64,000 nt of DNA from a virus: positions 32,333 through 96,332 of IMG/VR virus record IMGVR_UViG_3300017989_000082; one strand, 5' to 3'. Each line of letters begins with the position of its first letter. Position 1 is the first letter of the stretch. Made by a program: the position numbers and the translations under genes. Shown here piece after piece: positions 32,704 to 48,922 of this stretch. The notes beneath the pieces were generated by a model. It saw only the letters and a program-made list of their open reading frames with translations, did not search any database and had not been told where the DNA came from.

Positions 32704-35097
32704 ATGAGCAAGTATAACTTGGAAGGCACACAAACCCCCTGCGAAGTTTTATTTCGCCAAGCAGTTTACAAAGGCTCTGTTGTTAATGGCGATGGGTTTC
32801 AGGGCTACTATGTTAGGGTTGAATACGATGAAGGCTTATATGAGATAGATTGGCACTATAATTGCGGTTCTGGTGAAGACAACCACCCTTCATCGCCAGA
32901 CATTGTTTTTTCGGAAAACGATTTAATAATTGTTGAGTTTAATAAAGAGGGGGTTCCGCTGAAGGCCATTGGCCATGCAGATGGTGCAAAAAATTGCCTT
33001 GGGAAATATTGGATTGCTGAGGAAAGAAATAACAACCTATACGTTGATGCTGATGGTTCCTCTGCAATACTTGTTTTTTATGACGAGGGGACTGGAGATG
33101 AATTAGAAACACCGAGAAATTACCGTAAGTGTTCAGAAGATGCCGCTAAGATAATGCACGATTTATGGGATGAAGCAGTATCATACCGCGGAATAGACTC
33201 TGTTAGGTTTGCCGAAAATTACCCATTTAAAATTGGAGTGTTGATTGAAATAAGGGCTTTGCCATGGAGCGCTCTTTCAGACCCAAATGTTGATGATTAT
33301 ATATATACTCATTTATATATTGAATACTCAATTTCACAAACCACAAAAGAGATAACCATTTCCGACTACACCCCGATTTTAGACCCATCGATATATACGT
33401 CTCCTGTTGCCTTATTATCGAGTTATGATGAAATAATGGCAGTCAGAAATGAAAATGGTGAGGTTGGAAACCCTCATGGTACTGGTTGCCGTGGGGTTGG
33501 CTTTACAGCCCATTGTGATGAAAAAGACATTTGTTCTTTTAGTAAGACCTGCGATCTTTCAAGTTCATATGGCCCAGACGAATATGGCAATAATTGGATA
33601 AATGATGAAACAAAATATTCCCAAAAAAGGATGGAGCATTCGTATCCAAATGAGCCAACGTGTTATTGGAATCAACCAATGGTATACAAAAATGCTGGCA
33701 TGCACGTTTCCCAATATGCTGAAACAAAAATAACTGTTGGTGGAACCTTTAGTAAAATAATATCCATGAACGCGCAAAAAGAAAATGAATTGCAATATAC
33801 GCACGATAAACATAAAGTTGGAGATCAATATATTTGGGGAAGAGGTCCATGGTGTGCTGAAAATAAAACAGCGGGGAGGTGGTGGTCCCCATTGGATTTT
33901 CATATTGAGAGAACCCGCATAAGTGAAAATAGTTATTATTACGATGTACCAGAGTATGGGCTTCCAACCGTAACTCAAGATATTTACTATTATTGCAAAG
34001 GAAAGTTTTATGGCAGGGGCTATGGGGTTAGTCAAGTTGAATGCGTTGGGTATGATTATGTGTGGCCGTGGACATGCGATTGCCATGATAATTGTGCAGA
34101 CCCAAACGATGATACTTGCGAATATGGGGGAAAAGATTGCAACCCAGATTTAACAGATACCAGTACCCAAAGTGAAACTGTTATGGGTCCATATAATGAG
34201 TATGATGACGGGTCATTTTCAATAACAGTTTTCCAAACCCCGGTTAGTACAATGGAAAGTTCAGATGAGGTTTTTTCGGAGCCATTACACCAAAAAATAA
34301 GAGATGTAGATCTTGAGTATTGGGGCTATCATGTTGATTATAACCCAATTTGGAGTGATCAGTGTGTAGATTTATATGGGTCCATTGTAGACCCATGCAA
34401 ACTTAGCGAACCAGCAAGCCCTAGTTTCCCGCAACAATGGTATAACTGTGCTGAGCAGATAATTCCAAACCAAATGTTTCCCGGCTGGATATATTATATG
34501 CCATCAAATGTATATGTCATGAGAGGGTGGCCCGTGTATACATTGGGCGATGGAAAGGTTTTCTGTAAACAGAGGATAATTGAGCTTAGTGAGAGGCTTG
34601 TTGTTCTTAGTGATGAAGAGGAATTTAAAGGCTTGGGGGTTAACTCCTATTACCCGCCAGAAGGGTATGGGTTGTTTACAGGGCTAAATGGGGGAGAGAA
34701 TTTTATAATTGGAAAAACAGACCCAATTGGTTTTCCGGATTATATATTGTATCCAATAGATATAACAGGAGGGTGTGGTGAGAGCAAAGAAGATCTTTTA
34801 TCAACAACGGAATATTTTGGTGGATACAATTATCAATTGCATGAAAGTCTTGAAAATGATATAAGTAATCTTTATGACGCTACTAGGGGTGGGGCACTGA
34901 TCAACGATCAGGGGAATGGATTTCTATTGTATGCAACTTACCCAGGAGGAAAAGTAAACCAGATAAAAGGGTATAACGGATGGGAGCTTGTAGATGGAAA
35001 AATTAGGCCAATTAACCCTGATAGCCCCGTTTTTGAAGATCTCATCAGTGTAGATAAATGCAGTAATGGTATAGATTTTTTAATTTATGAGCCATAA
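32704..35097 (+). CDS. large Cys/Tyr-rich tail-tip (spike/RBP-like) protein
   Basis: 797 aa, about 23 Cys, AT-rich. N-terminal HYNC...DLIIVEF...AIG segment resembles a spike OB-fold. Confidence 0.55.
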   Translation: MSKYNLEGTQTPCEVLFRQAVYKGSVVNGDGFQGYYVRVEYDEGLYEIDWHYNCGSGEDNHPSSPDIVFSENDLIIVEFNKEGVPLKAIGHADGAKNCLGKYWIAEERNNNLYVDADGSSAILVFYDEGTGDELETPRNYRKCSEDAAKIMHDLWDEAVSYRGIDSVRFAENYPFKIGVLIEIRALPWSALSDPNVDDYIYTHLYIEYSISQTTKEITISDYTPILDPSIYTSPVALLSSYDEIMAVRNENGEVGNPHGTGCRGVGFTAHCDEKDICSFSKTCDLSSSYGPDEYGNNWINDETKYSQKRMEHSYPNEPTCYWNQPMVYKNAGMHVSQYAETKITVGGTFSKIISMNAQKENELQYTHDKHKVGDQYIWGRGPWCAENKTAGRWWSPLDFHIERTRISENSYYYDVPEYGLPTVTQDIYYYCKGKFYGRGYGVSQVECVGYDYVWPWTCDCHDNCADPNDDTCEYGGKDCNPDLTDTSTQSETVMGPYNEYDDGSFSITVFQTPVSTMESSDEVFSEPLHQKIRDVDLEYWGYHVDYNPIWSDQCVDLYGSIVDPCKLSEPASPSFPQQWYNCAEQIIPNQMFPGWIYYMPSNVYVMRGWPVYTLGDGKVFCKQRIIELSERLVVLSDEEEFKGLGVNSYYPPEGYGLFTGLNGGENFIIGKTDPIGFPDYILYPIDITGGCGESKEDLLSTTEYFGGYNYQLHESLENDISNLYDATRGGALINDQGNGFLLYATYPGGKVNQIKGYNGWELVDGKIRPINPDSPVFEDLISVDKCSNGIDFLIYEP

Positions 35098-35116
35098 TTT
35101 AATAGGAGAATTTGGT

Positions 35117-35608
35117 ATGACTGAGAAAACAAATCGCTCTCCAATTACAGAGGGGGAAAAGTATTTTGACAATGGAGAAGTTAAAACAACATACAAGTTT
35201 ACTAATGGTAGAATATCTTCTATAACAATAGAGGTATTTGATGAAGATGTTATACCAAAGGTCGACCTATTAAATAAAAGAATCAATAGTGTGTGGCTGA
35301 ATAGAATAAACGCTATGCTTGTTGATATGATGTCTTCGCCCCCGCAACGGGCTGAAAGGGTTATTCAGAACAGACCTAACCCCGAATTAATGCCGCCAAA
35401 AGATTACAGGAAGATTGATCCTGCAATGATCAATGAGATGGATTTGCCATATTGCAAACTGTGCAACAGCAAAGGCGAGAAGATAAAAATGGTTATAACA
35501 AGACCATGTTGCGGAAAAGATATGCACACCATTATTTGCCCGAAGTGTGGGTTTAGAGCTAAAATCAAAGTAAACCCAATTAAGGAAGGGAAAGAGAATA
35601 ATGATTGA
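35117..35608 (+). CDS. hypothetical protein with C-terminal CKLC...CCG...CPKC
   Basis: AGGAG RBS before ATG 35117. Confidence 0.65.
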   Translation: MTEKTNRSPITEGEKYFDNGEVKTTYKFTNGRISSITIEVFDEDVIPKVDLLNKRINSVWLNRINAMLVDMMSSPPQRAERVIQNRPNPELMPPKDYRKIDPAMINEMDLPYCKLCNSKGEKIKMVITRPCCGKDMHTIICPKCGFRAKIKVNPIKEGKENND

Positions 35609-35912
35609 TATTGTTTGCATTCGTGGTGCTGGCGACAAAGAAGCCCCCGAAATTAATGACCCCCTCATTAATAGCGAATATATTGCGAAGGTTCGCGGAA
35701 CCAATTTCATTAATGAAAATTGGTATAAGCGATCTAAGCGCACTCTGCGAGTTCCCTACAAGGATGGCATTTTCATTAACCAGAAATTAAACGTATATGA
35801 AAGCCTTCTGGATATTGTTGATGTCCATATAGCCACCGATTACAGTTTCACCATTAGCAATGAAGGCATTTGGGCCGAAATTAATGTTGAGCAGCATGAG
35901 GAGGGCGAATGA
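35601..35912 (+). CDS. hub C-terminal-like tail protein
   Basis: RGAGDKEAPEINDPLI...AKVRG...VPY pattern. Confidence 0.5.
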   Translation: MIDIVCIRGAGDKEAPEINDPLINSEYIAKVRGTNFINENWYKRSKRTLRVPYKDGIFINQKLNVYESLLDIVDVHIATDYSFTISNEGIWAEINVEQHEEGE

Positions 35913-36178
35913 TGCTTAAGATAATAAAGGAGATATCAAAGAAGGCCCAAGTTGATAATATTCAGGATGCTACAATACATTCCCGCAACCCTGATGGAAC
36001 CTATAATATTATCATGAGAACCGGGGCAATAAAAAAGAGTGCAATCAATTCAACAGACATGACCTTTAAGAGAAACGAACGGGTCAACATTAGCATGGTT
36101 ACTGGCAATAAGGAAACAGCTAAAATTATCGGCAGGGGGTCAAAGAAAAATACGGGCGAAAAAATAATTTATGTTTGA
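35909..36178 (+). CDS. small OB-fold-like tail protein
   Basis: 89 aa with NPDGTYNI...ERVNI; ATGA-coupled to the previous gene. Confidence 0.45.
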   Translation: MMLKIIKEISKKAQVDNIQDATIHSRNPDGTYNIIMRTGAIKKSAINSTDMTFKRNERVNISMVTGNKETAKIIGRGSKKNTGEKIIYV

Positions 36179-36192
36179 GGCGAGAATACAGA

Positions 36193-37167
36193 ATGAGAGT
36201 TGAACTTATTAACATTCCTTTTACCGATAATATTTCAAGTAGACTTGATCCGCCGCTGTTTTTGCTACAGATTGCCCCGATATTCCAAAAGGAAAATTAT
36301 GCCGTCAGGGTTAACGACCTTAATGGTATTAACAGGAATCATTGGGGCTTTGGAAGTTGTCCGCTATACGTTATATATGCCGACATAAACAGCTACAGCG
36401 TAGCGGTTGAAATATCCAGAATGTGCAGGGAAATAAACAACAAGTCTGCCATTATTGTTTGCGGTAGTGGTCCCAGCAAGTATACTGGAAAATATGCAAA
36501 CACAAGAAGTTTCAATGTTGTTATAAAAGGAGAGGCAGAGCTTTCGGTTGCCAATTTTCTTACGGATATAATCCACGATGTTGACAGCGTTCAGCATGTG
36601 TATAGCGAAGAGGTTAGGAATGTAAATCGTTTACCATTTCCAGCCCGCAATCTTGTTGAAATGAATACCTATGCCCGAAGGCTTGATGGCATGAGAGCCA
36701 CAATGATCATGGGTAGCCGGGGAAGTCCTTTTGGCCCTACATGGCTATGTAAAAAATTAAAGCTGTTCAGCATCAACAGAATAAAGAACGAGGTTGTTGG
36801 AGTTGTTAATAAATATGGAATAAAAAATTTCTTTTTTGGTGACACAACCTTTACCTTTAACGAGCAAAGAGCATTAGATATAGGTAAAGTTATGGCCAAT
36901 AAAAACTTGCTTTTTGGCTTTAATGATGTTATATCAGAAGTTAAGCTTCCGCTATATAAAGAGTTAATAAGGTTGGGAGCTAGAGAGGTCTTCATTAACC
37001 CAATCGGAGCATCAAGCCAAGAGGAGGTTTCAGAACTTAAGAGCCAGATTGCATCTGAAACCGGCATGCGGGTTATTGTCCGCAAGGATGCCAAGTACCA
37101 AGATAGAAGGGGCTCTAATAATGGTAAGGGAAACAACAATGGAAAACAAGAAGATAGTATGCTTTAA
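36193..37167 (+). CDS. degenerate cobalamin-dependent radical SAM homologue
   Basis: PPLFLLQIA, IKGEAE, LPFPARNL and FGDTTFT are retained, but the CxxxCxxC site reads SRGSPFGPTWLC. Confidence 0.75.
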   Translation: MRVELINIPFTDNISSRLDPPLFLLQIAPIFQKENYAVRVNDLNGINRNHWGFGSCPLYVIYADINSYSVAVEISRMCREINNKSAIIVCGSGPSKYTGKYANTRSFNVVIKGEAELSVANFLTDIIHDVDSVQHVYSEEVRNVNRLPFPARNLVEMNTYARRLDGMRATMIMGSRGSPFGPTWLCKKLKLFSINRIKNEVVGVVNKYGIKNFFFGDTTFTFNEQRALDIGKVMANKNLLFGFNDVISEVKLPLYKELIRLGAREVFINPIGASSQEEVSELKSQIASETGMRVIVRKDAKYQDRRGSNNGKGNNNGKQEDSML

Positions 37168-38062
37168 TGAAAGACTTGGCGACCGCATTATTGTTAAATA
37201 TTTTGCAGAAAATGTAAAAACAGAATTTCCAGAATTTGAGCTATACGCCTTCCAGAGTTTTAAATACCCTTCCGTAAAAGGCTTTGATATGGAGCTTTGG
37301 GCTCCTGATTTATTTGCCGGGTTTCTTTACCCTGAAGATGGATACCGCAGTTGCCTTGATGCCGAAAATAAAACTGGCTACAGGGTTCTTTATCCAACTT
37401 GGGGGAATCTGTTTGTTTATGCCCCGAACATGATCAGAAAAACGGGGCGCTACCCTACTCTTGAAATTCCTGATCGCTACAAGCAATGGCTTGATACGGA
37501 ATTTGATGAAATGGTCTGGCGTCACTATTGCCGTTTCGCAGTTGGACCGCCTGCCGGTATAGTTGTGTGGCATATTCTTACAGATGCCCCTTACAGTAGG
37601 AGCCGCAACCACAACTTTAAACACCACGCCGCGGCCATTAAAATGCTGGCCAGAAAGTACCCTGATTGGCTGTTTATCCGAATAGGCCGTATGGATGCTG
37701 AGAATGGACTTCTGAGGGGTGATTTCAAGAACATAATTGACCTAACCCAATATGATTTAACGCCGTCTAGGTCTATCTCAGTGATATCCAGGGGTGATAT
37801 TTACGTCGGGGGTGATACAGGCATGACCCATGCGGCCAGCGCGTTGAAAAAGAAGATAGTGGCCATATGGGGTGATATAACCCACATGCTCAGGGACAGA
37901 TCAACAAGAAATAACATACAGCCCGGCGATTGGAATAGCGGCCCCTATGTTCCAGAAGAAGATTGCTATATTTTACGCCGTAACGGCGGTGAGCATATTA
38001 TGCGGCCAATTTATACAGCAGAGGAAATAGTTAATGGCGTAGAACATTTCATCAAGAGGTGA
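37121..38062 (+). CDS. glycosyltransferase family 9 (heptosyltransferase-like)
   Basis: RLGD, IIDLT and YVGGDTGMTHAASALKKKIVAIWG. Start at 37121 or 37139. Confidence 0.85.
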   Translation: MVRETTMENKKIVCFNERLGDRIIVKYFAENVKTEFPEFELYAFQSFKYPSVKGFDMELWAPDLFAGFLYPEDGYRSCLDAENKTGYRVLYPTWGNLFVYAPNMIRKTGRYPTLEIPDRYKQWLDTEFDEMVWRHYCRFAVGPPAGIVVWHILTDAPYSRSRNHNFKHHAAAIKMLARKYPDWLFIRIGRMDAENGLLRGDFKNIIDLTQYDLTPSRSISVISRGDIYVGGDTGMTHAASALKKKIVAIWGDITHMLRDRSTRNNIQPGDWNSGPYVPEEDCYILRRNGGEHIMRPIYTAEEIVNGVEHFIKR

Positions 38063-38066
38063 CATC

Positions 38067-38786
38067 ATGGATCCATTCTCCGTAATACTGATATCGTATT
38101 TCAAATTGCATAGGCTGAGGGCGTGTGTTGATTCAATGCTTGGGCAAATGCGCCCGTGCGACGAACTTGTCATCATTGACAACTCTGTCAGCACTGCCGG
38201 TGAAGTGGATCTAGAATTGAGAGAATATCTTGGTGATGTTTTTAATAGGAACTTTGATGATGACTCTCCTGCAATTAGCATATATTTGAATAAATGGAAC
38301 CATTTTTTTACAAGCTCGGTTAATGAGGGCATAAGAAAAAGCAGCAACGAATATATCTTCCTTGTAAATAATGATACCGAGGTTGTTACTCCAAATACAT
38401 TTAAGACCCTCATTAATTTTGCAAAAACTGATCCGACCATTGCCACGGTCACGCCCGTTACGCTTCAGAGTAATGACAGTGTGTATTGCAGCGGAGCTTA
38501 TGGCGGTGGAGCACACAAAAAAGATAAAATAAAAGAGCCGCGGGAAGCAGAATGGAGCAATTTCGCTTTCGTGCTTATTAAAAGAAAAGTCATAGAGAAA
38601 ATTGGCCCAATGGCTCTTGGCAGAAAAAAAGTCGGTACAAGGGAGGTTGAATTAACCCATTATCATTCGGATGAAGAATTCTGTAGAAGAGCCACAGGGC
38701 ATGGTTTTACTCATTGGGTCCACCCCTTGATTGTTAGACACTATCACAAAGAGGATGAAACATGGCAACATGGCAATACTGGTTAG
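38067..38786 (+). CDS. glycosyltransferase family 2
   Basis: SVILISY, VIIDNS, NEGI...YIFLVNND and SDEEFCRRA. Confidence 0.88.
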   Translation: MDPFSVILISYFKLHRLRACVDSMLGQMRPCDELVIIDNSVSTAGEVDLELREYLGDVFNRNFDDDSPAISIYLNKWNHFFTSSVNEGIRKSSNEYIFLVNNDTEVVTPNTFKTLINFAKTDPTIATVTPVTLQSNDSVYCSGAYGGGAHKKDKIKEPREAEWSNFAFVLIKRKVIEKIGPMALGRKKVGTREVELTHYHSDEEFCRRATGHGFTHWVHPLIVRHYHKEDETWQHGNTG

Positions 38787-39301
38787 GGTGGGGAATTGTA
38801 TTTATACTGTCGGTTACTGTGGTGTTCGGTGCGGTATATTTTGCCGTACATTTATTTGTTAAACTTTTGAAAAGAAAAGGAGCATTTGGTATGGAAACAA
38901 CAGTTAAGGCCCGTGGCCTGCACGCAATTGTGGACCTTGCTGGCTGTCCATCAGGCCTGCTCGGGGACCAAGAAATACTCACCAGTATCATGAGGGAAGC
39001 AGCCAACAAAGCACAGGCAACAATCATGAAGGTGGTAAGTTACCGGCTAGGTGGTCCTCCCAGCCTGCACCCTGCCGCAAAGAAGACTCCTGACGGCATC
39101 AGCGTATACGTTGGCCTTGATGAAAGCCATGTCACCTGTCACACTTATCAGGAGGACGGCCTTATTGCCATAGATATTTTTGTCTGTGGTCGTAATGCGA
39201 TTGCCCGCGCCGCGGTAGGGTATTTATTGAAGGAGATTCCACATAAAAAACAAAGCGTGCATTACATTAACAGGTTTGTGGAGGAAGATGATAATGAATA
39301 A
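38762..39301 (+). CDS. speD: S-adenosylmethionine decarboxylase proenzyme homologue, possibly with an N-terminal TM segment
   Basis: GLHAIVDLAGC...LDESHVTCHTYQE...IDIFVCG. The second start ATG 38891 has an AAGGAG RBS. Confidence 0.88.
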   Translation: MATWQYWLGWGIVFILSVTVVFGAVYFAVHLFVKLLKRKGAFGMETTVKARGLHAIVDLAGCPSGLLGDQEILTSIMREAANKAQATIMKVVSYRLGGPPSLHPAAKKTPDGISVYVGLDESHVTCHTYQEDGLIAIDIFVCGRNAIARAAVGYLLKEIPHKKQSVHYINRFVEEDDNE

Positions 39302-39509
39302 GGGAATAAAAATTGTCAACGATACTGGTAACCCAATTGATACGAAAATTTATGATTCTGATGGCAACGATATTTCTTCTGCTCTTCAGGTCCGTAAAAT
39401 ATCCATTGACATCACTAGATACAGATTAGAGGCTATCCTGATTTGCGTTGACCCAACTATCAGCCTGCGGGGCGTTGAGGGAATTGCTATTAAGGAGGAG
39501 GAGCCGTAA
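39294..39509 (+). CDS. small hypothetical protein
   Basis: GGAGG RBS; fills the gap and is TAATG-coupled to the next gene. Confidence 0.6.
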   Translation: MNKGIKIVNDTGNPIDTKIYDSDGNDISSALQVRKISIDITRYRLEAILICVDPTISLRGVEGIAIKEEEP

Positions 39510-40189
39510 TGGACATTCATGTCCTAACACCGTTTTATCGTGACTATTTGGCTCCTACACTTATTCATTACCTGGAGCCAATGGGAATAATATGGCATCC
39601 CATTGTGACGGTTGAAGAAAGATGGCCTACGGTAGCGCAGGCTAAGGGCCACAAAAAACAAAAATATTGGATTCATCCGTTAGTTGTTCCAAAGCTTGCT
39701 CCCGGTATGAATGCCTTTAAGAAAATTAACGACTTCATTGAGATGCGCCATATTGTTGACGATGATTATTATGGCTTCATGTGCGATGATAACATGTACT
39801 CCCCTAATTTCTTTGATGTAATTCGCCAGCAAACAGCTAAGATTCTCATGTTCTCAATGTACCGTGGTGATACGGTTCCTGATCGAAAGGGAGAGGTGCC
39901 ACACCATGCCACTACCCTAAGAATTGCTGAACCGTGGGATGTGCGCCACGGCAACATTGATATCATGCAGTATATTATCAAGGGAGAAATATTCAGAAAG
40001 TATCGTTTTGATGTGTACGATCATGCTTACAGTGATGGCCACTACGCTGAGCGCCTGAAGTTTCAACACCCGGATGATATTCAGTTTCTCCCTAACCTAT
40101 ATTGTTTTTTCAATTATTTTCAGCCGGGTCGCTATACTGACCCGAGCAAATTTTTAGATCCTACATGGAAAATGCCTAAGTTTGTATGA
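39509..40189 (+). CDS. GT-A-fold glycosyltransferase-like protein, paralogue 1
   Basis: IHVLTPFYR, YYGFMCDDN and SDGHY. Confidence 0.7.
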   Translation: MDIHVLTPFYRDYLAPTLIHYLEPMGIIWHPIVTVEERWPTVAQAKGHKKQKYWIHPLVVPKLAPGMNAFKKINDFIEMRHIVDDDYYGFMCDDNMYSPNFFDVIRQQTAKILMFSMYRGDTVPDRKGEVPHHATTLRIAEPWDVRHGNIDIMQYIIKGEIFRKYRFDVYDHAYSDGHYAERLKFQHPDDIQFLPNLYCFFNYFQPGRYTDPSKFLDPTWKMPKFV

Positions 40190-40201
40190 GCGGAGTGATA
40201 A

Positions 40202-40819
40202 ATGAGAACATGTAAGATAAAAAATTGTGATAAAAAACATCACGGGAGGGGATATTGCAAAAGGCATTATTTACAATTAAAAAGATATGGAAAAATTTTA
40301 AAAAGAACAAGGCGTGATCCAAATAGGTTTATTTTTGAAAAGAATATTTGTAAGATAGAATTATATAATCATAAAAATGAAGTGGTTGGGTATGGAATAA
40401 TAGATAAAGAAGATTATAGAAAAATCAAAAAATATAAGTGGTGTTTATCGCCACAAGGGTATGTTGTTACTTGGGATGGAAAAAGATTGCATAGACTTAT
40501 AAATAATACTTTCTATAATTATGACACTGATCATATTGATAACAATAAACTAAACAATAGAAAGGAAAATCTTAGAGTTTGCACTAAGCTGGAGAATTCA
40601 AGGAATGTTGGCTTGAGTAGTAATAACTCTTCTGGATTTAAAGGTGTGTGGTGGGAAAATGGAAATAAAAAATGGAGAGCATTAATAAATGCTAATGGTA
40701 TGGCAATTCATTTAGGGTGCTTTGCGAATAAAAATGATGCTGCCAGAGCATATAACTGTGCAGCCATTAAATATCATGGTGAATTTGCAAAACTCAACAG
40801 AGTAAGGATGGCAATATGA
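40202..40819 (+). mobile_element. free-standing HNH-AP2 homing endonuclease
   Basis: N-terminal CxxxxC...CxxHY, then DHIDNNKLNNRKENLR, then AP2 SGFKGV...HLG.F...AARAYN...HGEFA. Markedly AT-rich. Confidence 0.92.
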
Positions 40820-41475
40820 AAGACATTCATGTGTTGACACCGTTTTACAGAACTCATTTGGCCCCAACCCTTATTCATTATCTTGAGCCTATGGGGGTGC
40901 AGTGGTATCCTATTTGCGAAGATAGACATTATAGTAGTGAGTTTTCTTCCCGTAATTGGATTACCCCTCTTCTTGTTGATGCTCTTTCTGAGAGCGATCA
41001 GTGTTATATTCGCTTTAATCAATTTCAGGATGCTCATTTGGTAGACGATAATGATTATTATTGTTTCATGGGCGATGACGACGCATACGAGCCGGGCTTT
41101 TTTGATATCATCAGAAGACAAACGGCTAAGATTCTCATTGTCTCTCTTTCTCGCGGCGATAGAATACCTGAGTGTGACCCTGAAAAGCACCCGACCAACC
41201 CGCTTATCATGAATAGCATTCGTGATGTGCAGGTATGCAATATTGGTTTGCCGCAGTATATTATTAAGGGGGAAATATTTAAACAGATGCGTTTCCGAAA
41301 TGACCACTGCTGGAATGATGGCCACTTTGCCGAGAAGCTTAAAGAGTGGTTCCCGAACGACTTTCACTTCTTGCCTGACACATTCGTTTTCGGAAATTAT
41401 TTTCAAGAGGGAAGGTATTTCGGAACACAATGGATGTTGAAACCAACATGGCGGCACCCGAGGATAATTAAATGA
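40816..41475 (+). CDS. GT-A-fold glycosyltransferase-like protein, paralogue 2
   Basis: Collinear with the 39509 ORF (DIHVLTPFYR..LAPTLIHYLEPMG; FMGDDD). Confidence 0.7.
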   Translation: MKDIHVLTPFYRTHLAPTLIHYLEPMGVQWYPICEDRHYSSEFSSRNWITPLLVDALSESDQCYIRFNQFQDAHLVDDNDYYCFMGDDDAYEPGFFDIIRRQTAKILIVSLSRGDRIPECDPEKHPTNPLIMNSIRDVQVCNIGLPQYIIKGEIFKQMRFRNDHCWNDGHFAEKLKEWFPNDFHFLPDTFVFGNYFQEGRYFGTQWMLKPTWRHPRIIK

Positions 41476-42443
41476 AACGCTTTCGTGAAAAAAATGTTGA
41501 ACCGCTTGGCCCTGCCCTTCCATTAAGTACGCCATGGGTAATTAATGTTGATCCATCATCAATGTGTGATCTGAGATGCAAATATTGCTTTCACTATAAA
41601 AACAGAAACCCGAAGAATTATGGCATGATGGAGTGGAGTCTTTACAGGAAGCTCATTAGCGACATAAAGAAATTTCCCCGTAAGCTTAAAACATTGCGCC
41701 TGTATGCTTTTGGCGAGCCAATGATGAATCCATTATTTGCTGATATGGTTCGCTTGGCTAAAGATGAAAATGTATCTTTTGACATTGACACCACTACAAA
41801 TGGAATGTTTTTAAACCCATCAAGAAACCTTGATATAATCAATGCCGGTATTGATAGAATCAATTTATCGGTAGTTGGCGTGAGTGACTCGAAATATTTG
41901 GAATTCTCTGGAAGAAAGGTTAATTTTGTTAAGTTCGTCGAAAACGTTTCGCACCTGTATCACAACAGAAGACAATGCATACTGTTTATTAAGCTCAATG
42001 GCGATATTGTTTCAACAGAAGATCAGGAAAAGTTTCTTGAAATATTTACACCAATCTGCGATGGCATAGCCGTTGAGCATGTTATGGATTGTTGGTATGA
42101 TTTTAAAATGGAAGGAATTATTCGCAACAAGGATGTTGGCGTTTACGGCCAGCCGTTAACGAAGGTTGATGTGTGCCCGTATATATTTTACTCCTTCTGT
42201 GTTCAGTATGATGGCGAGGTTAGTGCCTGCTTTTTGGATTGGAACAGGAAGCTTATTATTGGCGACGCTAAGAAAGAAAAGCTTAAAGATATTTGGAATG
42301 GTAAATCCCTAAGAGGCATTCGTAAACTCATGTTGTGTAAGCAAAGGGATTGCATAATTGCCTGTAAAGGTTGTAATCAGCTTGAGGCTGGGAACCCTGT
42401 TAATATTGATCCCCTGGCAAAGGAGCTATTGGAGAAGATATGA
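41472..42443 (+). CDS. radical SAM protein with SPASM/twitch domain
   Basis: CDLRCKYC, FGEPM and CPYIF...GEVSAC...CKGC. Confidence 0.92.
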   Translation: MKRFREKNVEPLGPALPLSTPWVINVDPSSMCDLRCKYCFHYKNRNPKNYGMMEWSLYRKLISDIKKFPRKLKTLRLYAFGEPMMNPLFADMVRLAKDENVSFDIDTTTNGMFLNPSRNLDIINAGIDRINLSVVGVSDSKYLEFSGRKVNFVKFVENVSHLYHNRRQCILFIKLNGDIVSTEDQEKFLEIFTPICDGIAVEHVMDCWYDFKMEGIIRNKDVGVYGQPLTKVDVCPYIFYSFCVQYDGEVSACFLDWNRKLIIGDAKKEKLKDIWNGKSLRGIRKLMLCKQRDCIIACKGCNQLEAGNPVNIDPLAKELLEKI

Positions 42444-43633
42444 GTTGTCCAGTATGCGGTAATTTGTCTATTGATGAAATTCTGTTTCTTGAGTGTGGGA
42501 AGTTTGATGACTCGCCAATATATGACCCCCTCAGGATTGCGACCTGCACTGTCTGCGGGCATGTTTATAATTTGCTGACTGAAAACGAAATATTGGGGTT
42601 GATGCAATACTATGAGACAGAATATGCAATGAATAATCTATACTCCCCAAACATCAATGGGGATACACCAGGAAGCATAGGGCGTAATAGTGTGGAACGG
42701 TACGCTTTGCTTTATGAATTCATTAGCGGTTGGATTACCCGCCACGATCGGGTTCTTGATGTAGGGTGTGCGGCAGGTGGTTTCCTGCAAACACTTAAGA
42801 AGATGAACTATAGGCACTTATCAGGAATTGAATTTTCAGAACCTTATGTTGAGGCGGCATCAAAACTTCCCGATATAGAGATAAAAAAAGGCATTGCGGA
42901 AGAAATTCCCTACGATAATGACAGCTTTGATTTCGTTGTTGCCGATCAGGTTGTAGAGCACCTTGCTGATCCAAGCTCTATATTCAAAGAAGCAAGGCGT
43001 GTGCTTGATGACAGGGGACTTCTTTGCATTAGCGTTCCCAATGCCATATTTTACGAGGAAACACACTTTTTTGATTTTTACTGGTTTCTCATGCGGGAGC
43101 ATATTCAACATTTCGACTTAATACATTTGGCCATGATTGCTGAAAAACATGGCTTCACCCTTATTGACAGCAAGACTACATTTTCAAATATGATTAGCGA
43201 TCGCTCTATTCTCCCTAACCTTTCCACACTGTTCATGCTGAAAGATACTAATGTTTGTAGGTCTTGGCTGCCATCAGGTCTTGGCGAAAAAATGAAGAGC
43301 TACATTAAAACCAGCTATGAAGATTTGAACAAGAAAAGAAGGTTTATCGGCCATATGGCCGATACGAAAATGCCGCTTTATGTTTATGGCATAGGCAGGG
43401 AGTTTATGTACCTGTATAAAAACACTCGCCTTCCTGAATGCGAAATTCCTGGCCTCATTGATGACACCAAATATAAACAGGATTTCCTCAAGTTTGATGG
43501 AAGAAATATCCTTGGAAGCGAATTTATAAAATATACCAGTGAAAATGTAATAATTACTGCTACGGCCCATTCAGCGAAGCTTAAGGCAAGGCTCAACGAT
43601 TTAGATGTCAAGGGAAAGATCATTGAGATATGA
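42440..43633 (+). CDS. class I SAM methyltransferase with N-terminal Zn site (sugar C-methyltransferase-like)
   Basis: CPVC...CTVC, VLDVGCAAG, VVEH, EHIQHF and a C-terminal VYGIG Rossmann-like domain. Confidence 0.85.
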   Translation: MSCPVCGNLSIDEILFLECGKFDDSPIYDPLRIATCTVCGHVYNLLTENEILGLMQYYETEYAMNNLYSPNINGDTPGSIGRNSVERYALLYEFISGWITRHDRVLDVGCAAGGFLQTLKKMNYRHLSGIEFSEPYVEAASKLPDIEIKKGIAEEIPYDNDSFDFVVADQVVEHLADPSSIFKEARRVLDDRGLLCISVPNAIFYEETHFFDFYWFLMREHIQHFDLIHLAMIAEKHGFTLIDSKTTFSNMISDRSILPNLSTLFMLKDTNVCRSWLPSGLGEKMKSYIKTSYEDLNKKRRFIGHMADTKMPLYVYGIGREFMYLYKNTRLPECEIPGLIDDTKYKQDFLKFDGRNILGSEFIKYTSENVIITATAHSAKLKARLNDLDVKGKIIEI

Positions 43634-44910
43634 AACATGAAATACTCCATATAGCGGTTCATCTGGGTGGCGGCGTAGGGTCAGTTGTTATGAATTGGAT
43701 TAACACTGACACCATTAATAACCATACTGTTCTCTGCTTAAACGAGAACTACTATTACAAGGAGAAGTTTCCAGAAGATACCGTTAAAGAAAAAATGAGA
43801 GGCAGAACCGGAGAAATTCTTAATCATATAAGCAATTCAGATGTTGTAGTGGTTCACTTTTGGAATCACCCCATGTTGTACGAGCTTCTTGTCAACACCT
43901 ATCTGCCGCCTTGCAGGCTGGTGATGTGGTCGCATGTTTCAGGGTTGAGCGCGCCATATGTGTTCCCGCATAAACTTATAGAAATGTCTGATTGCTTCAT
44001 ATTTTCATCTCCTATAAGTTACAAGGCGAAAGAAATTGAAAGCTTGCCCGCTAAACAACGCCGGAAGCTAAGCCATATATGGACAACTGGTGACATTAAT
44101 AACTATTCAGAAATTGAACCGCTTAAACACGACGGCTTCAACATTGGCTTTATTGGCACATTGGATTATTCAAAGCTACACCCAAACTTCATAGATTTCT
44201 GTAGTAGGATTAACATACCAGATGTGAAGTTCATCATGTGCGGCACTGGCTGCGATGAAGAGCTTATTCGGCGACAAGTCAAAGACCGCGGCATGGGGGA
44301 CAAATTCATCTTTACTGGCATTATTGAAGACATCAAGCCCTATCTTGCTATTATTGATGTGTTTGGCTACCCGCTTAACCCGAATCACTTTGGAACCTGC
44401 GAGCAAGTACTTGGCGAGGCTATTGCCGCGGGGGTTATTCCGGTTGTCATGAAAAACCCTGCCGAGGAATATATACTTTACCAGAGCATTGTCAAGTTTG
44501 TTTGCAGTACTGAAGAAGACTACATAAACAACATTGAGCTGTTATACCGTGATCGGAAGGAGCGGGCCAAACTTATTTCATACATCCAGAAGCATGTAGT
44601 TGGCCTGTATGATACTGAAAAAATGGTGATGTCATGGAACCTTGTTTTCAGTGATATGATCAGTAATGTTAAGAAGACAAAAAAGGAATGGCCTAAGCCA
44701 AACCCCGATCAGGTATACTTAGGGCATAAAATATTTATTGAATCGCTTGGCGAGTATGGTAAAATACTCGAAGGGGGTTCGCACAAAATCATAAGAGCTC
44801 TTTTTGGTGAAAATCGCCAATGGAGAAGCAGAAGCAAGGGAAGTGTAATTCAATATTCAGAATGTTTTCCTCAAGATGCTACACTTAAGGAGTGGGCTAA
44901 GCTGATATGA
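43630..44910 (+). CDS. glycosyltransferase family 4-like (GT-B)
   Basis: HLGGGVG, IGFIGTLD and DVFGYP...EQVLGEAIAAG. Confidence 0.85.
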   Translation: MKHEILHIAVHLGGGVGSVVMNWINTDTINNHTVLCLNENYYYKEKFPEDTVKEKMRGRTGEILNHISNSDVVVVHFWNHPMLYELLVNTYLPPCRLVMWSHVSGLSAPYVFPHKLIEMSDCFIFSSPISYKAKEIESLPAKQRRKLSHIWTTGDINNYSEIEPLKHDGFNIGFIGTLDYSKLHPNFIDFCSRINIPDVKFIMCGTGCDEELIRRQVKDRGMGDKFIFTGIIEDIKPYLAIIDVFGYPLNPNHFGTCEQVLGEAIAAGVIPVVMKNPAEEYILYQSIVKFVCSTEEDYINNIELLYRDRKERAKLISYIQKHVVGLYDTEKMVMSWNLVFSDMISNVKKTKKEWPKPNPDQVYLGHKIFIESLGEYGKILEGGSHKIIRALFGENRQWRSRSKGSVIQYSECFPQDATLKEWAKLI

Positions 44911-45473
44911 ATATTTTCAGGGAAATTTTCAGTAAATACGATACCGATAAGGTGAATGGCTCATACGAGCTTGCTTATGAAGATTGTTTTGCTCAAATAA
45001 GGGAGAATGTAGAGCTTGTTTATGAAATAGGTGTTAACCGTGGCGGCAGTGTTCAGGCATGGCGGGAATATTTTCCGAATGCCTTTATTGTTGGCCTTGA
45101 GATCGAAAAACGTATTTACCCTGACTGGAGTGGCATTAAAATAGAGTTTGGCGATGCTACTGATTATGATTTTCTCGGTGATGTGCTGAAAAAATATGGC
45201 AAACCCGATATTGTTATTGATGATGGCTCACACTTCGGTAAGGATATTATTGCTACTCATAATTTTCTATGGCGGCACACCGAGCTATGTTATGTCATTG
45301 AAGACCTTGGCACCCAAGATCCTGATTATAAGAATGGCTTTTATATGCCCGGCGGGTTCTCTGCAATGACCTTGGTGGATACAATGATTGAAGAGTTAAT
45401 GTTTTGTAAAAGAAAATGCAGTGCCATTAAACTTTACCATTCAATCTGTTTCATGTTTAAGGGAATACAATGA
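44907..45473 (+). CDS. class I methyltransferase, MycE-like sugar O-methyltransferase
   Basis: TDK, EIGVNRGGS, DIVIDDGSH and YVIEDL. Confidence 0.82.
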   Translation: MNIFREIFSKYDTDKVNGSYELAYEDCFAQIRENVELVYEIGVNRGGSVQAWREYFPNAFIVGLEIEKRIYPDWSGIKIEFGDATDYDFLGDVLKKYGKPDIVIDDGSHFGKDIIATHNFLWRHTELCYVIEDLGTQDPDYKNGFYMPGGFSAMTLVDTMIEELMFCKRKCSAIKLYHSICFMFKGIQ

Positions 45474-46561
45474 ATATTTTCGACTTTAAAGGCAAAAACC
45501 TTATTGTTATCAGCGGCGAACCTGATACTGGTAAGACTACAATGGCAAGGGAGCTTCATGGCAAGCTTCCAAATTCAGTAATTTTGGAGACTGATTGGCT
45601 TATTATTAGCCACATTAATATGGGCATACTGATTCCACCGGAAAAATACAAAGACACATATGGGAAAAACCTTGGCGCTGTTATTAACGAAATGTGTCTT
45701 GCGTGGAGAAATGACTTGCGTGATTTGCTCAAATTTGAGTTGCAGATTTTGTATTTTAATAATGACACTGTAATCACCGAAGGCTATTTGTGGGGAATAC
45801 CAGAGTTCAGGTGCATACTGATTGACTATGAAAATGTTTGCTTTATTCATAGAAGGAAGGATCGACAATTTACAATAACTATGAACGAGCATGGAAAGAC
45901 TGTTGGAGACCTTGCCATAAAGGATCAGGCCAACGAAGTTATCCAAGCTATTAAGGCTGATGCCATTGAGCGTGTTATTCCATCATACGGATGGTATCAG
46001 AGTTTTGATTTCCTGCCCAAGCCTGCTTCCAGTAACAGTGCTGGAAAACTTGCGGCTTTAAATTTGCCAGAGCATATGCTTCACGATACCGTTCTGGACA
46101 TTGGCTGCAACACTGGCTACTTCAGCCTTGAATGTGCTAGGCGGGGTGCAAAGGTCATAGGAATTGAGAAGATTGAATTCATAGTGGACATTGCCAAGCG
46201 CATTCAGCGCAATATATATTTTCAACCCAACGTGCGCTTCTATGCCATGGATACCACGGATGACCTTTCCCAGCTTGGCCGCTTTACATATATTCTTGTG
46301 CTTGGCTTGTTTCACTATATTGTGGATCAGGAAGATACACTAAATAGATTAATGAATATACTTTTGCCAGAGGGAAAACTTAAGCTGGAAGTTGGAATAC
46401 ACCCTTCTGAAGCAAATAAAACCATCATTGTTGACGGCAAGTCTTATCCAACCTTGAAGCGCCTCGAAAGCTGGCTTAATGGTTACGACTACAACATTGT
46501 ACCATCCGTAAATCAGGCTGGCGACGCCTTCCCGCGGTCTATGGTTACGGTAACGAAATAA
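45470..46561 (+). CDS. P-loop kinase / class I methyltransferase fusion
   Basis: N-terminal SGEPDTGKTT; C-terminal VLDIGCNTGYFS and LGLFHY. Confidence 0.82.
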   Translation: MNIFDFKGKNLIVISGEPDTGKTTMARELHGKLPNSVILETDWLIISHINMGILIPPEKYKDTYGKNLGAVINEMCLAWRNDLRDLLKFELQILYFNNDTVITEGYLWGIPEFRCILIDYENVCFIHRRKDRQFTITMNEHGKTVGDLAIKDQANEVIQAIKADAIERVIPSYGWYQSFDFLPKPASSNSAGKLAALNLPEHMLHDTVLDIGCNTGYFSLECARRGAKVIGIEKIEFIVDIAKRIQRNIYFQPNVRFYAMDTTDDLSQLGRFTYILVLGLFHYIVDQEDTLNRLMNILLPEGKLKLEVGIHPSEANKTIIVDGKSYPTLKRLESWLNGYDYNIVPSVNQAGDAFPRSMVTVTK

Positions 46562-46569
46562 AAACGCCT

Positions 46570-47682
46570 GTGGTTGATAAAGAGTATTGGCCATGCTATT
46601 ATAAAACATACCCTTTAATTAAGGAGGCACCAGTGCGCTTTGATGTATTTAACCCATATAAAATGTTGGCCCATACCGATAAAATAAGCAAAATTCTAAA
46701 ATATGAAAACGAGCCACCAATCAGTGTCAGCATTGACCCTACCAGCAAGTGTAATCACAATTGTATGTGGTGCAGCAGCTCTGGTTACAGAATGGACAAC
46801 AAAAACGTAAGCCTGTCGCCTGATATATTGAGAGCCCTATGTAATGAATTTAAGGATATGGGAATTGAGGGGGTATATTTCGAGGGAGGCGGAGAGCCCC
46901 TATGCAACCTAAGCACTATTCACGCTATTGAAAACCTGAAGCGCCTTGAAATACCTACTGGTCTGATAACCAATGGCGTGCTCCTTAAGAAGGGAAGGGA
47001 TATGGACTCCCTTCTTGAGAGTTGTGAATTTATACGAATCAGTATTGATGCCGCCAGCGCTGAAACCTATTATCATATACGCGGTGCGAACGATTTTGAA
47101 ACAGTGAGAAGAAATGTTGAAGAACTTGCTCGGCGTAAAATAAATATTAAAAGCTCTTGTGAGATAGGGTTATCTTTCCTTATATATAAAAACAATTATA
47201 CCGAGATTGAACAATTTGTTCGTATCTTCAGGGATGCGGGGGCCAACTATATTCAATTCAAGCCCGTCATCATGAATGAAGATTGGCTTGATGATCGCCT
47301 ATATGATTACCTTACCTATCACTTGTGGATGGTTGAAAACAAATATGCCAGCCCCGAATTCAGGGTTACGGCAAACATACGACGGCTCCGTGAGGTTAGG
47401 GACAGGTATCAGCGGCTTTATGGGGAATGCCTTGGCCATAATCTTGTGGCAATTATCATGTCTTCTGGCGAGCTGAGCATATGCTGCCAGCACAGAGGAG
47501 TCAAACCTTTAACGTTTGGAAATCTTCGGGTAAATAGTTTTAGGGAGATATGGAATGGCAAGGCTAGGCAGGAAGCTATTAAGAAGATTAACCTCAGCAG
47601 ATGCCCTACCTGTAAATACGAGTCATATAATCAAATGCTCTGGGCTATGAAGTACCCTAACAAACATGCCTGCTTTCTATAA
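46570..47682 (+). CDS. radical SAM protein with SPASM/twitch domain
   Basis: CNHNCMWC, GGGEP and CLGH...GELSICC...CPTC. Confidence 0.92.
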   Translation: MVDKEYWPCYYKTYPLIKEAPVRFDVFNPYKMLAHTDKISKILKYENEPPISVSIDPTSKCNHNCMWCSSSGYRMDNKNVSLSPDILRALCNEFKDMGIEGVYFEGGGEPLCNLSTIHAIENLKRLEIPTGLITNGVLLKKGRDMDSLLESCEFIRISIDAASAETYYHIRGANDFETVRRNVEELARRKINIKSSCEIGLSFLIYKNNYTEIEQFVRIFRDAGANYIQFKPVIMNEDWLDDRLYDYLTYHLWMVENKYASPEFRVTANIRRLREVRDRYQRLYGECLGHNLVAIIMSSGELSICCQHRGVKPLTFGNLRVNSFREIWNGKARQEAIKKINLSRCPTCKYESYNQMLWAMKYPNKHACFL

Positions 47683-47685
47683 CGA

Positions 47686-47780
47686 GGCCCGTAGAAGCGC
47701 CTCAGAGCAAAAAGAAGGGCCGAAGCGGGCCTGAACCCGCCCCGGCCCATGAAAAGGCGTCTGAGGGCATCCTGATGGCC
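47686..47780. terminator. nested inverted repeat at the convergence of the two arms
   Basis: Nested pairs GGCC/GGCC, CCTCAGA/TCTGAGG, GGGCCG/CGGCCC and GCGGG/CCCGC. On the minus strand a U-tract follows the inner stem. Confidence 0.75.
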
Positions 47781-47794
47781 AATGCTGGTGTTTT

Positions 47795-48016
47795 CTAGGG
47801 CATGATTCCCCTGTTAATGCTTAAATGTGGCCTTTCACCTGCTTTTTTGAGTGATTTATACCTCTTTTTAAACTCAAGGTATATTCCATGGAGGCTGTCG
47901 CCGGGGTGCAAAAGCATTCCGTTTTCAGTCTTAAATATACCGGACTTCGGATTACCTCTTCTTTGGAACTCTTTAACGGCAATTCTCTTAATCGCCTTTG
48001 CCTTCTTACCGTTCAT
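47795..48016 (-). CDS. small basic hypothetical protein
   Basis: MNGKKAKAIKR...; ATGA-coupled to the upstream gene. Confidence 0.6.
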   Translation of the reverse strand: MNGKKAKAIKRIAVKEFQRRGNPKSGIFKTENGMLLHPGDSLHGIYLEFKKRYKSLKKAGERPHLSINRGIMP

Positions 48017-48114
48017 ATTGTCTGCCCCCATAGCGCCAGCATAATAAGCCCGGCACTAATTATTGTGAAGGATAAAAATAAGAAAAATACTTTATTCTCT
48101 TCATCATCACGCAT
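48013..48114 (-). CDS. 33-aa membrane peptide
   Basis: MRDDEENKVFFLFLSFTIISAGLIMLALWGQTI fills the gap; translated by hand. Confidence 0.55.
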   Translation of the reverse strand: MRDDEENKVFFLFLSFTIISAGLIMLALWGQTI

Positions 48115-48117
48115 TCA

Positions 48118-48597
48118 TCACTCCAAGAGTATTGGCGCAATGGCCGGTTTACTGCAACCGATGGCGATGTTCTTTCTGTAGGCATATTGAACTTTATACT
48201 CGTTACATTCTGATTCGTCAACAGTTAGAACTCCGTCATCGTTTGTGTCAACCAACACCTGACACATAGCGGGTGTCCAGGAGAAGCCTATTACTTCGCT
48301 CATTGTTCTGACTGCGGCATATTTTGCCTTCATGTCATTTATCATGTTTGGCGAAGCGCTTGCGGGCAACACAATCACAGGCTCGCTGTCGTCACTGAAT
48401 TCACCAGCAGTAGCGCATCCGTTCTGGCAAGCCTGAACCCTGACAGTAATGATGCCCGGTCTTTGCAAGAGCGGCGCTATGTCCACCTGATTGGTGGTTA
48501 CTACGCCAGCGTCAATAAACTCTTGTGCCGGGGCGGGGGTGACGGTAAGCAGTACAAAGAAGATTGCAGAAAATAACAATACCAGACTCTTTTTCAT
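48118..48597 (-). CDS. exported protein with signal peptide
   Basis: AAGGAGG RBS. MKKSLVLLFSAIFFVLLTVTPAPA|Q, five Cys and a DTNDDG loop. Confidence 0.75.
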   Translation of the reverse strand: MKKSLVLLFSAIFFVLLTVTPAPAQEFIDAGVVTTNQVDIAPLLQRPGIITVRVQACQNGCATAGEFSDDSEPVIVLPASASPNMINDMKAKYAAVRTMSEVIGFSWTPAMCQVLVDTNDDGVLTVDESECNEYKVQYAYRKNIAIGCSKPAIAPILLE

Positions 48598-48610
48598 TAA
48601 GCTCCTCCTT

Positions 48611-48922
48611 TCAGTATGGTACATCGTCCTCAAGGAAATCATCGTAATAGCGTTCAAACGCTTTTCGTACCAAGCTAACAAAGGCGGTATCGAATTTGTT
48701 TTCCCGTACCAACAGAAAATTTTGTATATAATTAATTCCAGAAGGGTCGTGAACCATGTCTCTAATCCTCATATTTACGAATTGGCCAAACCCTAACCGG
48801 ACATCAACCGTCTTGCCTTTTTTATTCTTTATCTTCGTGTACCTTGTTTTTGCCTTTGGTCCTTCGGCCCTCCGCAATTCTCTTTTTTCTTTCTCTTTTT
48901 TTAATTTTTTTAAGTTCACCAT
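48611..48922 (-). CDS. basic hypothetical protein
   Basis: AAGGAG RBS, 103 aa. Confidence 0.55.
   Translation of the reverse strand: MVNLKKLKKEKEKRELRRAEGPKAKTRYTKIKNKKGKTVDVRLGFGQFVNMRIRDMVHDPSGINYIQNFLLVRENKFDTAFVSLVRKAFERYYDDFLEDDVPY

Follow-up and report, generated by a model that had tools for sequence, protein, structure and literature searches.

What does a phage gain from a run of sugar-handling and radical enzymes placed at the end of its virion genes, and on what acceptor do these enzymes work? This question is raised by a 64,000-nucleotide stretch of viral DNA (the window), which corresponds to bases 32333-96332 of the IMG/VR viral record IMGVR_UViG_3300017989_000082 (96,332 bp, linear, CheckV completeness of 76%). 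Fourteen plus-strand open reading frames (ORFs), o1 to o14, occupy positions 36193-47682 of the window and are continuous with the tail genes. An initial annotation, made from the letters alone, had read them as a glycan-building and tailoring cluster contiguous with the virion operon and dependent on host precursors, and the gene content and coupling described below agree with this. We find it very probable that the cluster builds and tailors a glycan. Our confidence that the acceptor is the virion is evenly divided. The same balance applies to the proposal that the cluster is a phage-specific, horizontally mobile cassette for glycan assembly and tailoring and that its expression forms the last part of that of the late virion operon. 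To our knowledge, virion glycosylation has been shown experimentally in only a few actinobacteriophages, and islands of glycosyltransferases and radical S-adenosylmethionine (SAM) enzymes have been noted in marine phages and never resolved.

The analysis defines a concrete core of four proteins: a twitch radical SAM enzyme, a C-methyltransferase of the nucleotide-sugar type, a GT4 glycosyltransferase, and a phage-restricted GT-A glycosyltransferase, the last present here in two copies. The core genes of the window are as follows.

39509..40189, plus strand: o6, glycosyltransferase of a GT-A family without a Pfam entry, core gene (fold model)
40816..41475, plus strand: o8, second GT-A paralogue of the o6 family (alignment and fold model)
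41472..42443, plus strand: o9, BtrN-like twitch radical SAM enzyme, candidate sugar-alcohol dehydrogenase, core gene (PF04055 and PF13186)
42440..43633, plus strand: o10, three-domain enzyme resembling nucleotide-sugar C-methyltransferases, with a Cys4 zinc ribbon, a SAM domain, and a C-terminal Rossmann-like domain, core gene (Methyltransf_23, 4e-22)
43630..44910, plus strand: o11, GT4 (GT-B) glycosyltransferase, core gene (PF00534, 9e-17)

Searching IMG/VR with alignments of o6 and o10 yielded 12 distinct viral records, the window included. The o9-o10-o11 triad is present in all 12, with o11 homologues that are 35-59% identical. The o6 family is present in 10 of the 12 records, and o9 lies directly upstream of o10 in 10.

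The radical SAM protein o9 resembles BtrN, a 2-deoxy-scyllo-inosamine dehydrogenase. Its radical SAM triad (C32/C36/C39, CxxxCxxC) and four further cysteines (C235, C253, C298, and C301) are invariant in 11 homologues. The four cysteines have the spacing C-x17-C-x44-C-x2-C, identical to that of the BtrN auxiliary-cluster ligands, which we take to be residues 169, 187, 232, and 235. The C-terminal residues 245-306 of o9 align to BtrN residues 179-240 at 2e-10; this alignment puts three auxiliary cysteines on BtrN 187, 232, and 235, and the fourth falls on 169 by spacing. By its sequence, o9 appears to be a twitch enzyme, with the radical SAM triad and one four-cysteine auxiliary cluster in a truncated SPASM domain. 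However, only the C-terminal 60 residues align significantly with BtrN, and o9 has extra cysteines, namely, the invariant C207 and, in the window protein, C288 and C294. By analogy with BtrN, we infer that o9 oxidizes a secondary alcohol of a sugar or cyclitol.

A profile of o10 retrieved only generic methyltransferases from the PDB sequences, and a fold search was needed to reveal its likeness to KijD1 and TcaB9. The o10 model (predicted local distance difference test [pLDDT] score of 84.6) matched KijD1, MtmC, and TcaB9, enzymes of the branched deoxysugars of actinomycete antibiotics, over its full length (E values of 1e-21 to 6e-19, template modeling [TM] scores of 0.66-0.70), whereas generic methyltransferases matched the middle domain only (E value of 3e-12, TM score of 0.37). 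The model therefore suggests the three-domain architecture of the C3-methyltransferases, consisting of a Cys4 site, a class I SAM domain, and a C-terminal nucleotide-binding domain. The N-terminal Cys4 site (C3/C6/C36/C39) is invariant. E173-H174 and E220-H221 are invariant in seven homologues, and the tyrosines at 57, 58, and 62 and Y214 are conserved, as judged from the sequence alignment. An invariant Glu-His dyad lies near the position of TcaB9 E224/H225; we take the catalytic residues around the sugar in TcaB9 to be Y76, H181, Y222, E224, and H225. Although o10 has the same full-length fold and Cys4 site as these enzymes, its identity to them is only 14-17%, and it had no Pfam match at an E value of ≤0.01 to the N- or C-terminal domain families of the TcaB9 type. 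It also differs from the TcaB9-type sets in its phage setting and in its partner, which is a radical SAM enzyme rather than a set of nucleoside diphosphate (NDP)-hexose 4,6- or 2,3-dehydratases. Because the o10 fold includes a nucleotide-binding C-terminal domain, some enzymes of the cassette probably act on nucleotide-sugars.

The GT-A paralogues o6 and o8 are 47-48% identical, and their family had no match in Pfam, PHROG, NCBIfam, or the PDB sequences. None of 77 relatives in close clusters carries a Pfam domain, and the family has 478 representatives among 1.84 billion proteins. The o6 model (pLDDT of 93.5) gave 314 PDB matches at an E value of ≤0.001, GT-A enzymes leading; the GT-A matches in Foldseek included AvpGT, WrtF, GlcAT, and SpsA (5e-9 to 1e-5). 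A DDYYxFxxDD(D) motif, which contains D93-D94, is invariant in an alignment of 26 sequences of the family. With a Rossmann-like GT-A fold in the model and a DxD-type motif, o6 and o8 are predicted to be glycosyltransferases of a new GT-A family. Among the 185,579 cellular species scanned, the family turned up a single time, on a 3-kb contig of a metagenome-assembled genome; judged from these sequences, it is a virus-restricted family almost absent from cellular genomes. Longer metagenomic members (P0216, P0223, P0298, and P0229; 450-670 aa) are fused to a GT2 domain and a class I or TylF-like methyltransferase. The A064R-type enzymes of chlorovirus PBCV-1, a eukaryotic virus, combine two glycosyltransferases with a methyltransferase, are soluble and cytoplasmic, and produce a methylated capsid glycan without radical SAM chemistry. 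By domain description only, the GT-A/GT2/methyltransferase fusions of the o6 family are like them.

The remaining genes of the cassette and its boundaries are listed below.

35087..36178, plus strand: three small ORFs (173, 103, and 89 aa) between a 797-aa Cys-rich tail protein and o1
36193..37167, plus strand: o1, B12-binding radical-SAM-like protein, first cassette gene in this phage lineage (fold match; weak NCBIfam matches to B12 radical SAM enzymes)
37139..38062, plus strand: o2, GT9-like GT-B glycosyltransferase, start at 37121 or 37139 (PF01075)
38067..38786, plus strand: o3, GT2 glycosyltransferase (PF00535, 3e-12)
38762..39301, plus strand: o4, SpeD-type pyruvoyl S-adenosylmethionine decarboxylase (PF02675, AdoMet_dc, 6e-25; phrog_3125, 2e-21)
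39288..39509, plus strand: o5, small ORF of 73-77 aa
40202..40819, plus strand: o7, HNH-AP2 homing endonuclease between the GT-A paralogues (PF13392, HNH_3, and PF00847, AP2; phrog_99, 3e-37)
44907..45473, plus strand: o12, MycE/TylE-like sugar O-methyltransferase, catalytic core only (PDB 3ssm, MycE, 9e-14; 8ia9, TylE, 6e-10; phrog_21658)
45470..46561, plus strand: o13, N-terminal P-loop domain (Walker A GEPDTGKT, kinase-like) fused to a class I SAM methyltransferase (Methyltransf_31, 7e-12)
46570..47682, plus strand: o14, radical SAM enzyme with a SPASM domain (PF04055, 6e-18; PF13186, 3e-9)
47717..47748: GC-rich hairpin with a 14-bp stem at the convergent junction, likely the terminator of the late operon

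On the plus strand upstream, genes for a large terminase and a Mu-type portal precede those for a protease and the major head protein; these are followed by an ORF of 2382 aa, the size expected of a tape-measure gene, and by several tail protein genes, the last of which ends at 35097. Downstream, on the minus strand, are SbcCD-like, RecA, and DnaE genes. The strand switch at the end of the cassette is visible in both the ORF map and the GC skew, and the sole strong hairpin stands after o14. From 29880 to 47682, the spacing between genes ranges from a 29-nt overlap to a 14-nt gap, and seven junctions are 4-nt ATGA overlaps. This arrangement indicates translational coupling between the cassette and the tail genes, and it substantiates the tight packing described in the initial annotation. 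All 12 enzyme types named there were recovered on the plus strand of 36193-47682 by hidden Markov model (HMM), PDB-sequence, and fold evidence; its gene list omitted the HNH-AP2 gene o7 and the 73-aa o5. Its placement of the cluster directly after the last tail-tip gene is correct as to continuity with the tail genes, but the three small ORFs lie between. Pfam and PHROG searches with these ORFs gave no match, and they have homologues at the same position in the related loci L009, L019 (first ORF only), and L022. The tail-tip proteins upstream of the cassette (31800-35608) are unusually rich in Cys: the 299-aa protein has 11, the 797-aa protein has 23, and the 173-aa protein, in which the C terminus is CxxC-rich, has 6. 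A link between these proteins and the neighboring SPASM radical SAM enzymes is conceivable.

A phage contig joined chimerically to a host polysaccharide locus could also place cellular-looking enzyme families after tail genes, and such families were the only sign of an artifact. The assembly speaks against it. In four runs belonging to three studies, Logan contigs extend across 33000-49000 with about 100% identity and an even depth, and single contigs span the junction of tail genes and cassette (e.g., 34520-40432 and 35322-36630). The GC content is continuous across the region, the GT-A family is virus-restricted, and the same junction occurs in three relatives from other samples. Because contigs bridge the junction and three relatives are syntenic, a join with a host O-antigen-type locus, which the initial annotation had named as a possible refutation, is excluded for practical purposes. 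The runs that carry the window sequence are marine sediment and seawater metagenomes, and none of those found is an RNA run. Contigs from several runs have loose ends at 46121-46201, inside o13, and at 34994-35855; these sequences indicate that strains differ in the cassette as well as around the tail-tip genes.

The synteny search proposed in the initial annotation found the cassette after tail genes in L009, L019, and L022, which come from other metagenomes and are true relatives; the cassette takes up the slot after the tail genes there just as it does in the window. In each, the homologous tail genes lead into o1, a GT2 gene, and one or two copies of o6, with o9, o10, and o11 next in line. 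The accessory sets are not alike. That of L009 consists of an FkbM methyltransferase, an intact B12 radical SAM enzyme of 527 aa, and a sulfotransferase; that of L019, of a pair of sulfotransferase-like genes; that of L022, of o12 alone; and that of the window, of the GT9-like gene, SpeD, o12, o13, and o14. In phages that have no structural genes in common, the core is found in other positions: after genes for a virion structural protein and a head-tail adaptor in L014, upstream of a 1086-aa tape-measure-sized gene and a distal tail protein gene in L013, and between a primase gene and the genes for a sugar epimerase and large terminase in L010. A megablast search of the cassette against 50,697 phage records gave no match, and tblastn searches of phage records gave none for o6 and only five distant matches for o14. 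These comparisons suggest that the cassette moves among phages as a module restricted to them, in which the core is conserved and the accessories can be exchanged. By analogy, this pattern resembles surface-glycan loci under diversifying selection.

The homing endonuclease gene o7 appears to be an insertion, because the GT-A paralogues abut without an HNH gene in L009 and L011. Metagenome contigs from three runs branch off inside o7 at 40336. We considered this loose end as a deletion junction within the window and rejected the idea, since the loose-end sequence is absent from the window. By sequence, it is other DNA that has the 5' part of the HNH gene in common, and this suggests that the o7 element is common to other genomes in the same samples. 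Homing endonucleases recur in related cassettes. In L011 (12808-15282), an 824-aa B12 radical SAM gene is interrupted by an HNH intein (PF14890 and PF13392, between PF02310 and PF04055).

Among the other cassette enzymes, o1 proved to be a degenerate B12 radical SAM protein, as first described. An Atlas model of o1 has a TM score of 0.81 over 300 residues (1-303) to B12/radical SAM clusters, in which PF02310 and PF04055 are found in 96-100% of members. The CxxxCxxC motif is absent, and the site reads SRGSP..TWxC in all four homologues, whose mean column identity is 69%. In the model, o1 has a B12-binding domain and a radical SAM barrel; because the motif is missing, it is not predicted to be a functional class B member and is probably a conserved pseudoenzyme or adaptor. 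PDB sequence searches with o1, o2, and the o6 profile returned nothing significant. The o2 protein matched PF01075 with 23.5 bits (cutoff, 22) over residues 243-278 only (36 residues) and a heptosyltransferase I model with 23 bits (cutoff, 185); its Atlas neighbors are viral GT9-like clusters (score of 0.97; structural TM score of 0.74). Its GT9-like assignment is thus marginal, and use of ADP-heptose depends on the same marginal match. The gene is seen in this genome only and is absent from L009, L019, and L022. By comparison, o3 has weak homologues (24-26% identity) at the same position in these three loci. Translated from its first ATG, which is preceded by a good ribosome-binding site, o4 takes its long form and begins with a hydrophobic helix (KD19 of 2.44 at residue 11), which is unusual for SpeD; an alternative ATG at 38891, with the ribosome-binding site AAAAGGAG, gives a normal 136-aa form without the helix. 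No o4 homologue was found in L009, L019, or L022, and this SpeD may be an independent metabolic gene. No significant Pfam or PHROG match was found for o5, nor any homologue in related loci.

The O-methyltransferase o12 has homologues in L010, L011, L022, and L027. For o13, which had been called a kinase-methyltransferase fusion, the methyltransferase and the Walker A P-loop stand, but the kinase call is based on weak matches only (AAA_22 and KTI12 at 6e-4 to 1e-3, and a weak match to PRK06762); L009 has a 48%-identical homologue. The SPASM enzyme o14 is distantly like MoaA, DesII, and BlsE (PDB matches of 3.5e-5 to 2e-4), has a homologue in L009, and may alternatively start at GTG 46633, which has an AAGGAGG site. 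The glycosyltransferases of the cassette have no hydrophobic segment (maximum KD19 of <1.6), in line with the soluble enzymes expected from the outset. The cassette has no visible membrane-protein, flippase-like, or polymerase-like ORF, and no HMM search aimed at Wzx, Wzy, or WaaL was made. Across the 96-kb record, which is 76% complete, we found no SDR epimerase/dehydratase, NTP_transferase, TET/JBP, C5 DNA methylase, ThyA-family gene, or integrase. The earlier statement that no base-hydroxymethylase gene is visible is therefore upheld. The parallel statement about nucleotide-sugar synthesis holds for the primary genes, but the o10 fold suggests an enzyme that does act on nucleotide-sugars.

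We suggest the following scheme, in which radical SAM oxidation feeds C-methylation. Host nucleotide-sugars would be the input, because no primary sugar-activation genes were found. The o9 enzyme, judged by its family and as in BtrN, would oxidize a sugar hydroxyl to a ketone, and o10 would then C-methylate the carbon next to the new ketone, as the TcaB9-type enzymes require; for o10 the fold is supported by the model and the chemistry is presumed from it. The two GT-A paralogues, o11 (GT4), o3 (GT2), and o2 (GT9-like) would assemble a short oligosaccharide. O-methylation would be carried out by o12 and the methyltransferase domain of o13, and the o13 P-loop domain and o14 would give further lineage-specific tailoring, possibly with phosphate or by radical chemistry. 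Without its iron-sulfur motif, o1 would probably be a noncatalytic partner. Most likely, the product would be joined in the cytoplasm to capsid, tail, or tail-tip proteins as the virion assembles, and the finished particles would carry a variable, methylated sugar coat. The virion is the best-fitting target because the cassette has a late-operon placement in several lineages, its enzymes are soluble, no integrase was found, and the GT-A family is virus-restricted.

Phage islands of this general kind have been described and left uncharacterized (PMC7029224; cluster O mycobacteriophages). In the cluster O mycobacteriophages, O-methyltransferase and glycosyltransferase genes lie inside the structural operon (Corndog gp35-38; PMC4351075), and C-terminal glycans on the capsid and tail-tube proteins of Che8 and other mycobacteriophages (Freeman et al. 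2023) are cited in PMC12619734. Our cassette is like the mycobacteriophage virion-glycosylation operons in having soluble glycosyltransferases and an O-methyltransferase contiguous with the structural operon. For those operons, a glycan on the virion surface is the product that has been proposed or demonstrated. The cassette goes beyond them with its radical SAM enzymes, its C-methyltransferase, its fused P-loop and methyltransferase domains, and its new GT-A family. The host here is a marine-sediment bacterium and not an actinobacterium, and the likeness is one of gene content and placement, with no sequence relationship seen. A second comparison is the host recognition cluster (HRC) of pelagimyophages and cyanomyophages, in which several glycosyltransferases and swappable radical SAM cassettes lie beside tail-fiber genes, and close relatives differ by cassette gain and loss (PMC7029224). 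The window, L009, L019, and L022 likewise have hypervariable accessories between conserved flanks. However, the HRC belongs to T4-like phages, where it lies between VrlC and gp14, and our phage has a Mu-type portal and other structural families; no T4-like markers were found among the proteins of the window record that were scanned. The HRC genes, unlike this cassette, were never resolved to a conserved enzymatic core. New here are the four-gene core, the GT-A family, the pairing of a BtrN-like radical SAM enzyme with a nucleotide-sugar C-methyltransferase recognized by its fold, and the pseudo-B12 enzyme, which is conserved.

Several observations weigh against the virion as the target. A scan of the structural proteins found no Ser/Thr-rich tract or special C-terminal extension as an acceptor, the flanks of the L011 cassette have no recognizable structural genes, late expression is deduced only from gene arrangement, and the functional link between o9 and o10 is drawn from adjacency and family chemistry. 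The o10 homologues of L009 (12200-13228) and L010 (13405-14370) lack most of the SAM-binding region, retain the zinc ribbon, the REHxxHF motif, and the C-terminal domain, and may be non-methylating variants by their sequences. Other such observations point to DNA, on which the tailored sugar would be put on a hydroxymethyl-pyrimidine or other modified base and would evade host nucleases. Phage GT-A and GT-B enzymes (BshA/MshA-like) put mono- to trisaccharides, including heptose, on 5-hydroxymethylcytosine, and some DNA-glycosylation clusters lie near structural genes (10.1101/2023.12.21.572611). In the related record G001, a 396-aa ThyA-family protein (L016:5496-6686) is closest to the CMP hydroxymethylase MilA (2.7e-21, versus 5e-8 for thymidylate synthases); its gene adjoins those for the ribonucleotide reductase (RNR) large subunit and dCMP deaminase, and it may make a hydroxymethyl-pyrimidine. 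ThyA-family genes also occur in the relatives G006, G007, and G009. Among the cassette genes themselves, o11 has BshA as its second-best NCBIfam match, and multiple glycosyltransferases drawing on the host sugar-nucleotide pool are common to this cassette and the DNA sugar-hypermodification clusters, some of which are near structural genes (10.1101/2023.12.21.572611). The lack of a ThyA-family gene in the window record is uninformative, because the contig ends about 1 kb past dnaE, before the nucleotide-metabolism module of relatives; in G006, SbcD-like (Metallophos), RecA, and DnaE homologues are followed by RNR and then the ThyA-like gene. However, the DNA-hypermodification clusters are defined by a neighboring 5mYOX or ThyS gene, and neither is in or near the cassette of this truncated record. 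The 96 kb that are present have no TET/JBP, C5 methylase, or ThyA-family gene. Five other related records have no TET/JBP gene, and a ThyA-family gene is missing from three of these five (one 89% complete) and from the 100%-complete G010. We considered the short ThyA-like genes of the relatives as hydroxymethylases and rejected them, as they resemble ordinary short thymidylate synthases, and only the G001 gene is MilA-like; the short proteins retain the uracil-type Asn and fall in a very large family named thymidylate synthase. The ThyA-family genes of relatives are at least 25 kb from the cassette, and its distal position in the tail operon suits late expression and not replication-coupled modification. 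Finally, the described DNA-hypermodification pathways have no methyltransferase or radical SAM tailoring of the sugar, and that work reports no DNA sugars with C- or O-methyl groups (10.1101/2023.12.21.572611). On balance, we consider DNA an unlikely target. As a separate observation, an early/accessory region of the same phage (G000; L002:15074-16309) encodes a 411-aa protein with a 3'-phosphoadenosine-5'-phosphosulfate (PAPS) reductase domain (4.5e-26). Proteins of this kind with a PAPS reductase domain can belong to DNA-modification systems.

Another possible target is the host envelope. Working at the cytoplasmic face, the enzymes would then change precursors of the lipopolysaccharide (LPS) core, the O-antigen, or the capsule and block superinfection or the adsorption of progeny to debris. 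The glycosyltransferases of the pelagimyophage HRC were read in this way, as modifying the host O-chain (PMC7029224), and GT9, GT4, and GT2 are classic LPS and O-antigen families. The solubility of the enzymes is compatible with this reading, since peripheral glycosyltransferases of LPS and O-antigen pathways also have no membrane segments, and the host flippase and polymerase could serve in place of the membrane, flippase-like, and polymerase-like ORFs that the cassette does not visibly encode, within the limit of the searches given above. However, the lack of a detected integrase leaves no context of lysogenic conversion, and products of a late operon would have little time to be exported. 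The GT-A core family hardly occurs at all in cellular genomes, and even close relatives lack the GT9-like gene. Envelope remodeling thus seems improbable to us, to the same degree as DNA. Still more doubtful is protein or peptide maturation, in which the SPASM enzymes would act on the Cys-rich tail-tip proteins or on a peptide such as o5, and the product would then be glycosylated and methylated; a soluble glycosylated small molecule is a variant of this idea. Many SPASM radical SAM enzymes are peptide maturases, o9 has weak NCBIfam matches to several of them, and the adjacent tail proteins have 11 and 23 Cys. But the auxiliary domain of o9 matches that of BtrN, a small-molecule dehydrogenase, and not a two-cluster peptide maturase; o9 travels with a nucleotide-sugar-type methyltransferase in phages that have no common tail genes; and o5 has no homologues in relatives.

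With the virion as the target, as we propose, the sugar coats could influence host range, the stability of the particles, and recognition in sediments; with DNA as the target, the product would be the first methyl-branched sugar base modification. We offer more tentatively, as a possibility that we think somewhat doubtful, that the o9-o10 pair is an oxygen- and NAD-independent route to C-branched sugars and that, together with the phage-only GT-A and the GT4 enzyme, it may form a portable virion-glycosylation module that the phages of anoxic sediments exchange and diversify, as bacteria diversify their O-antigens.

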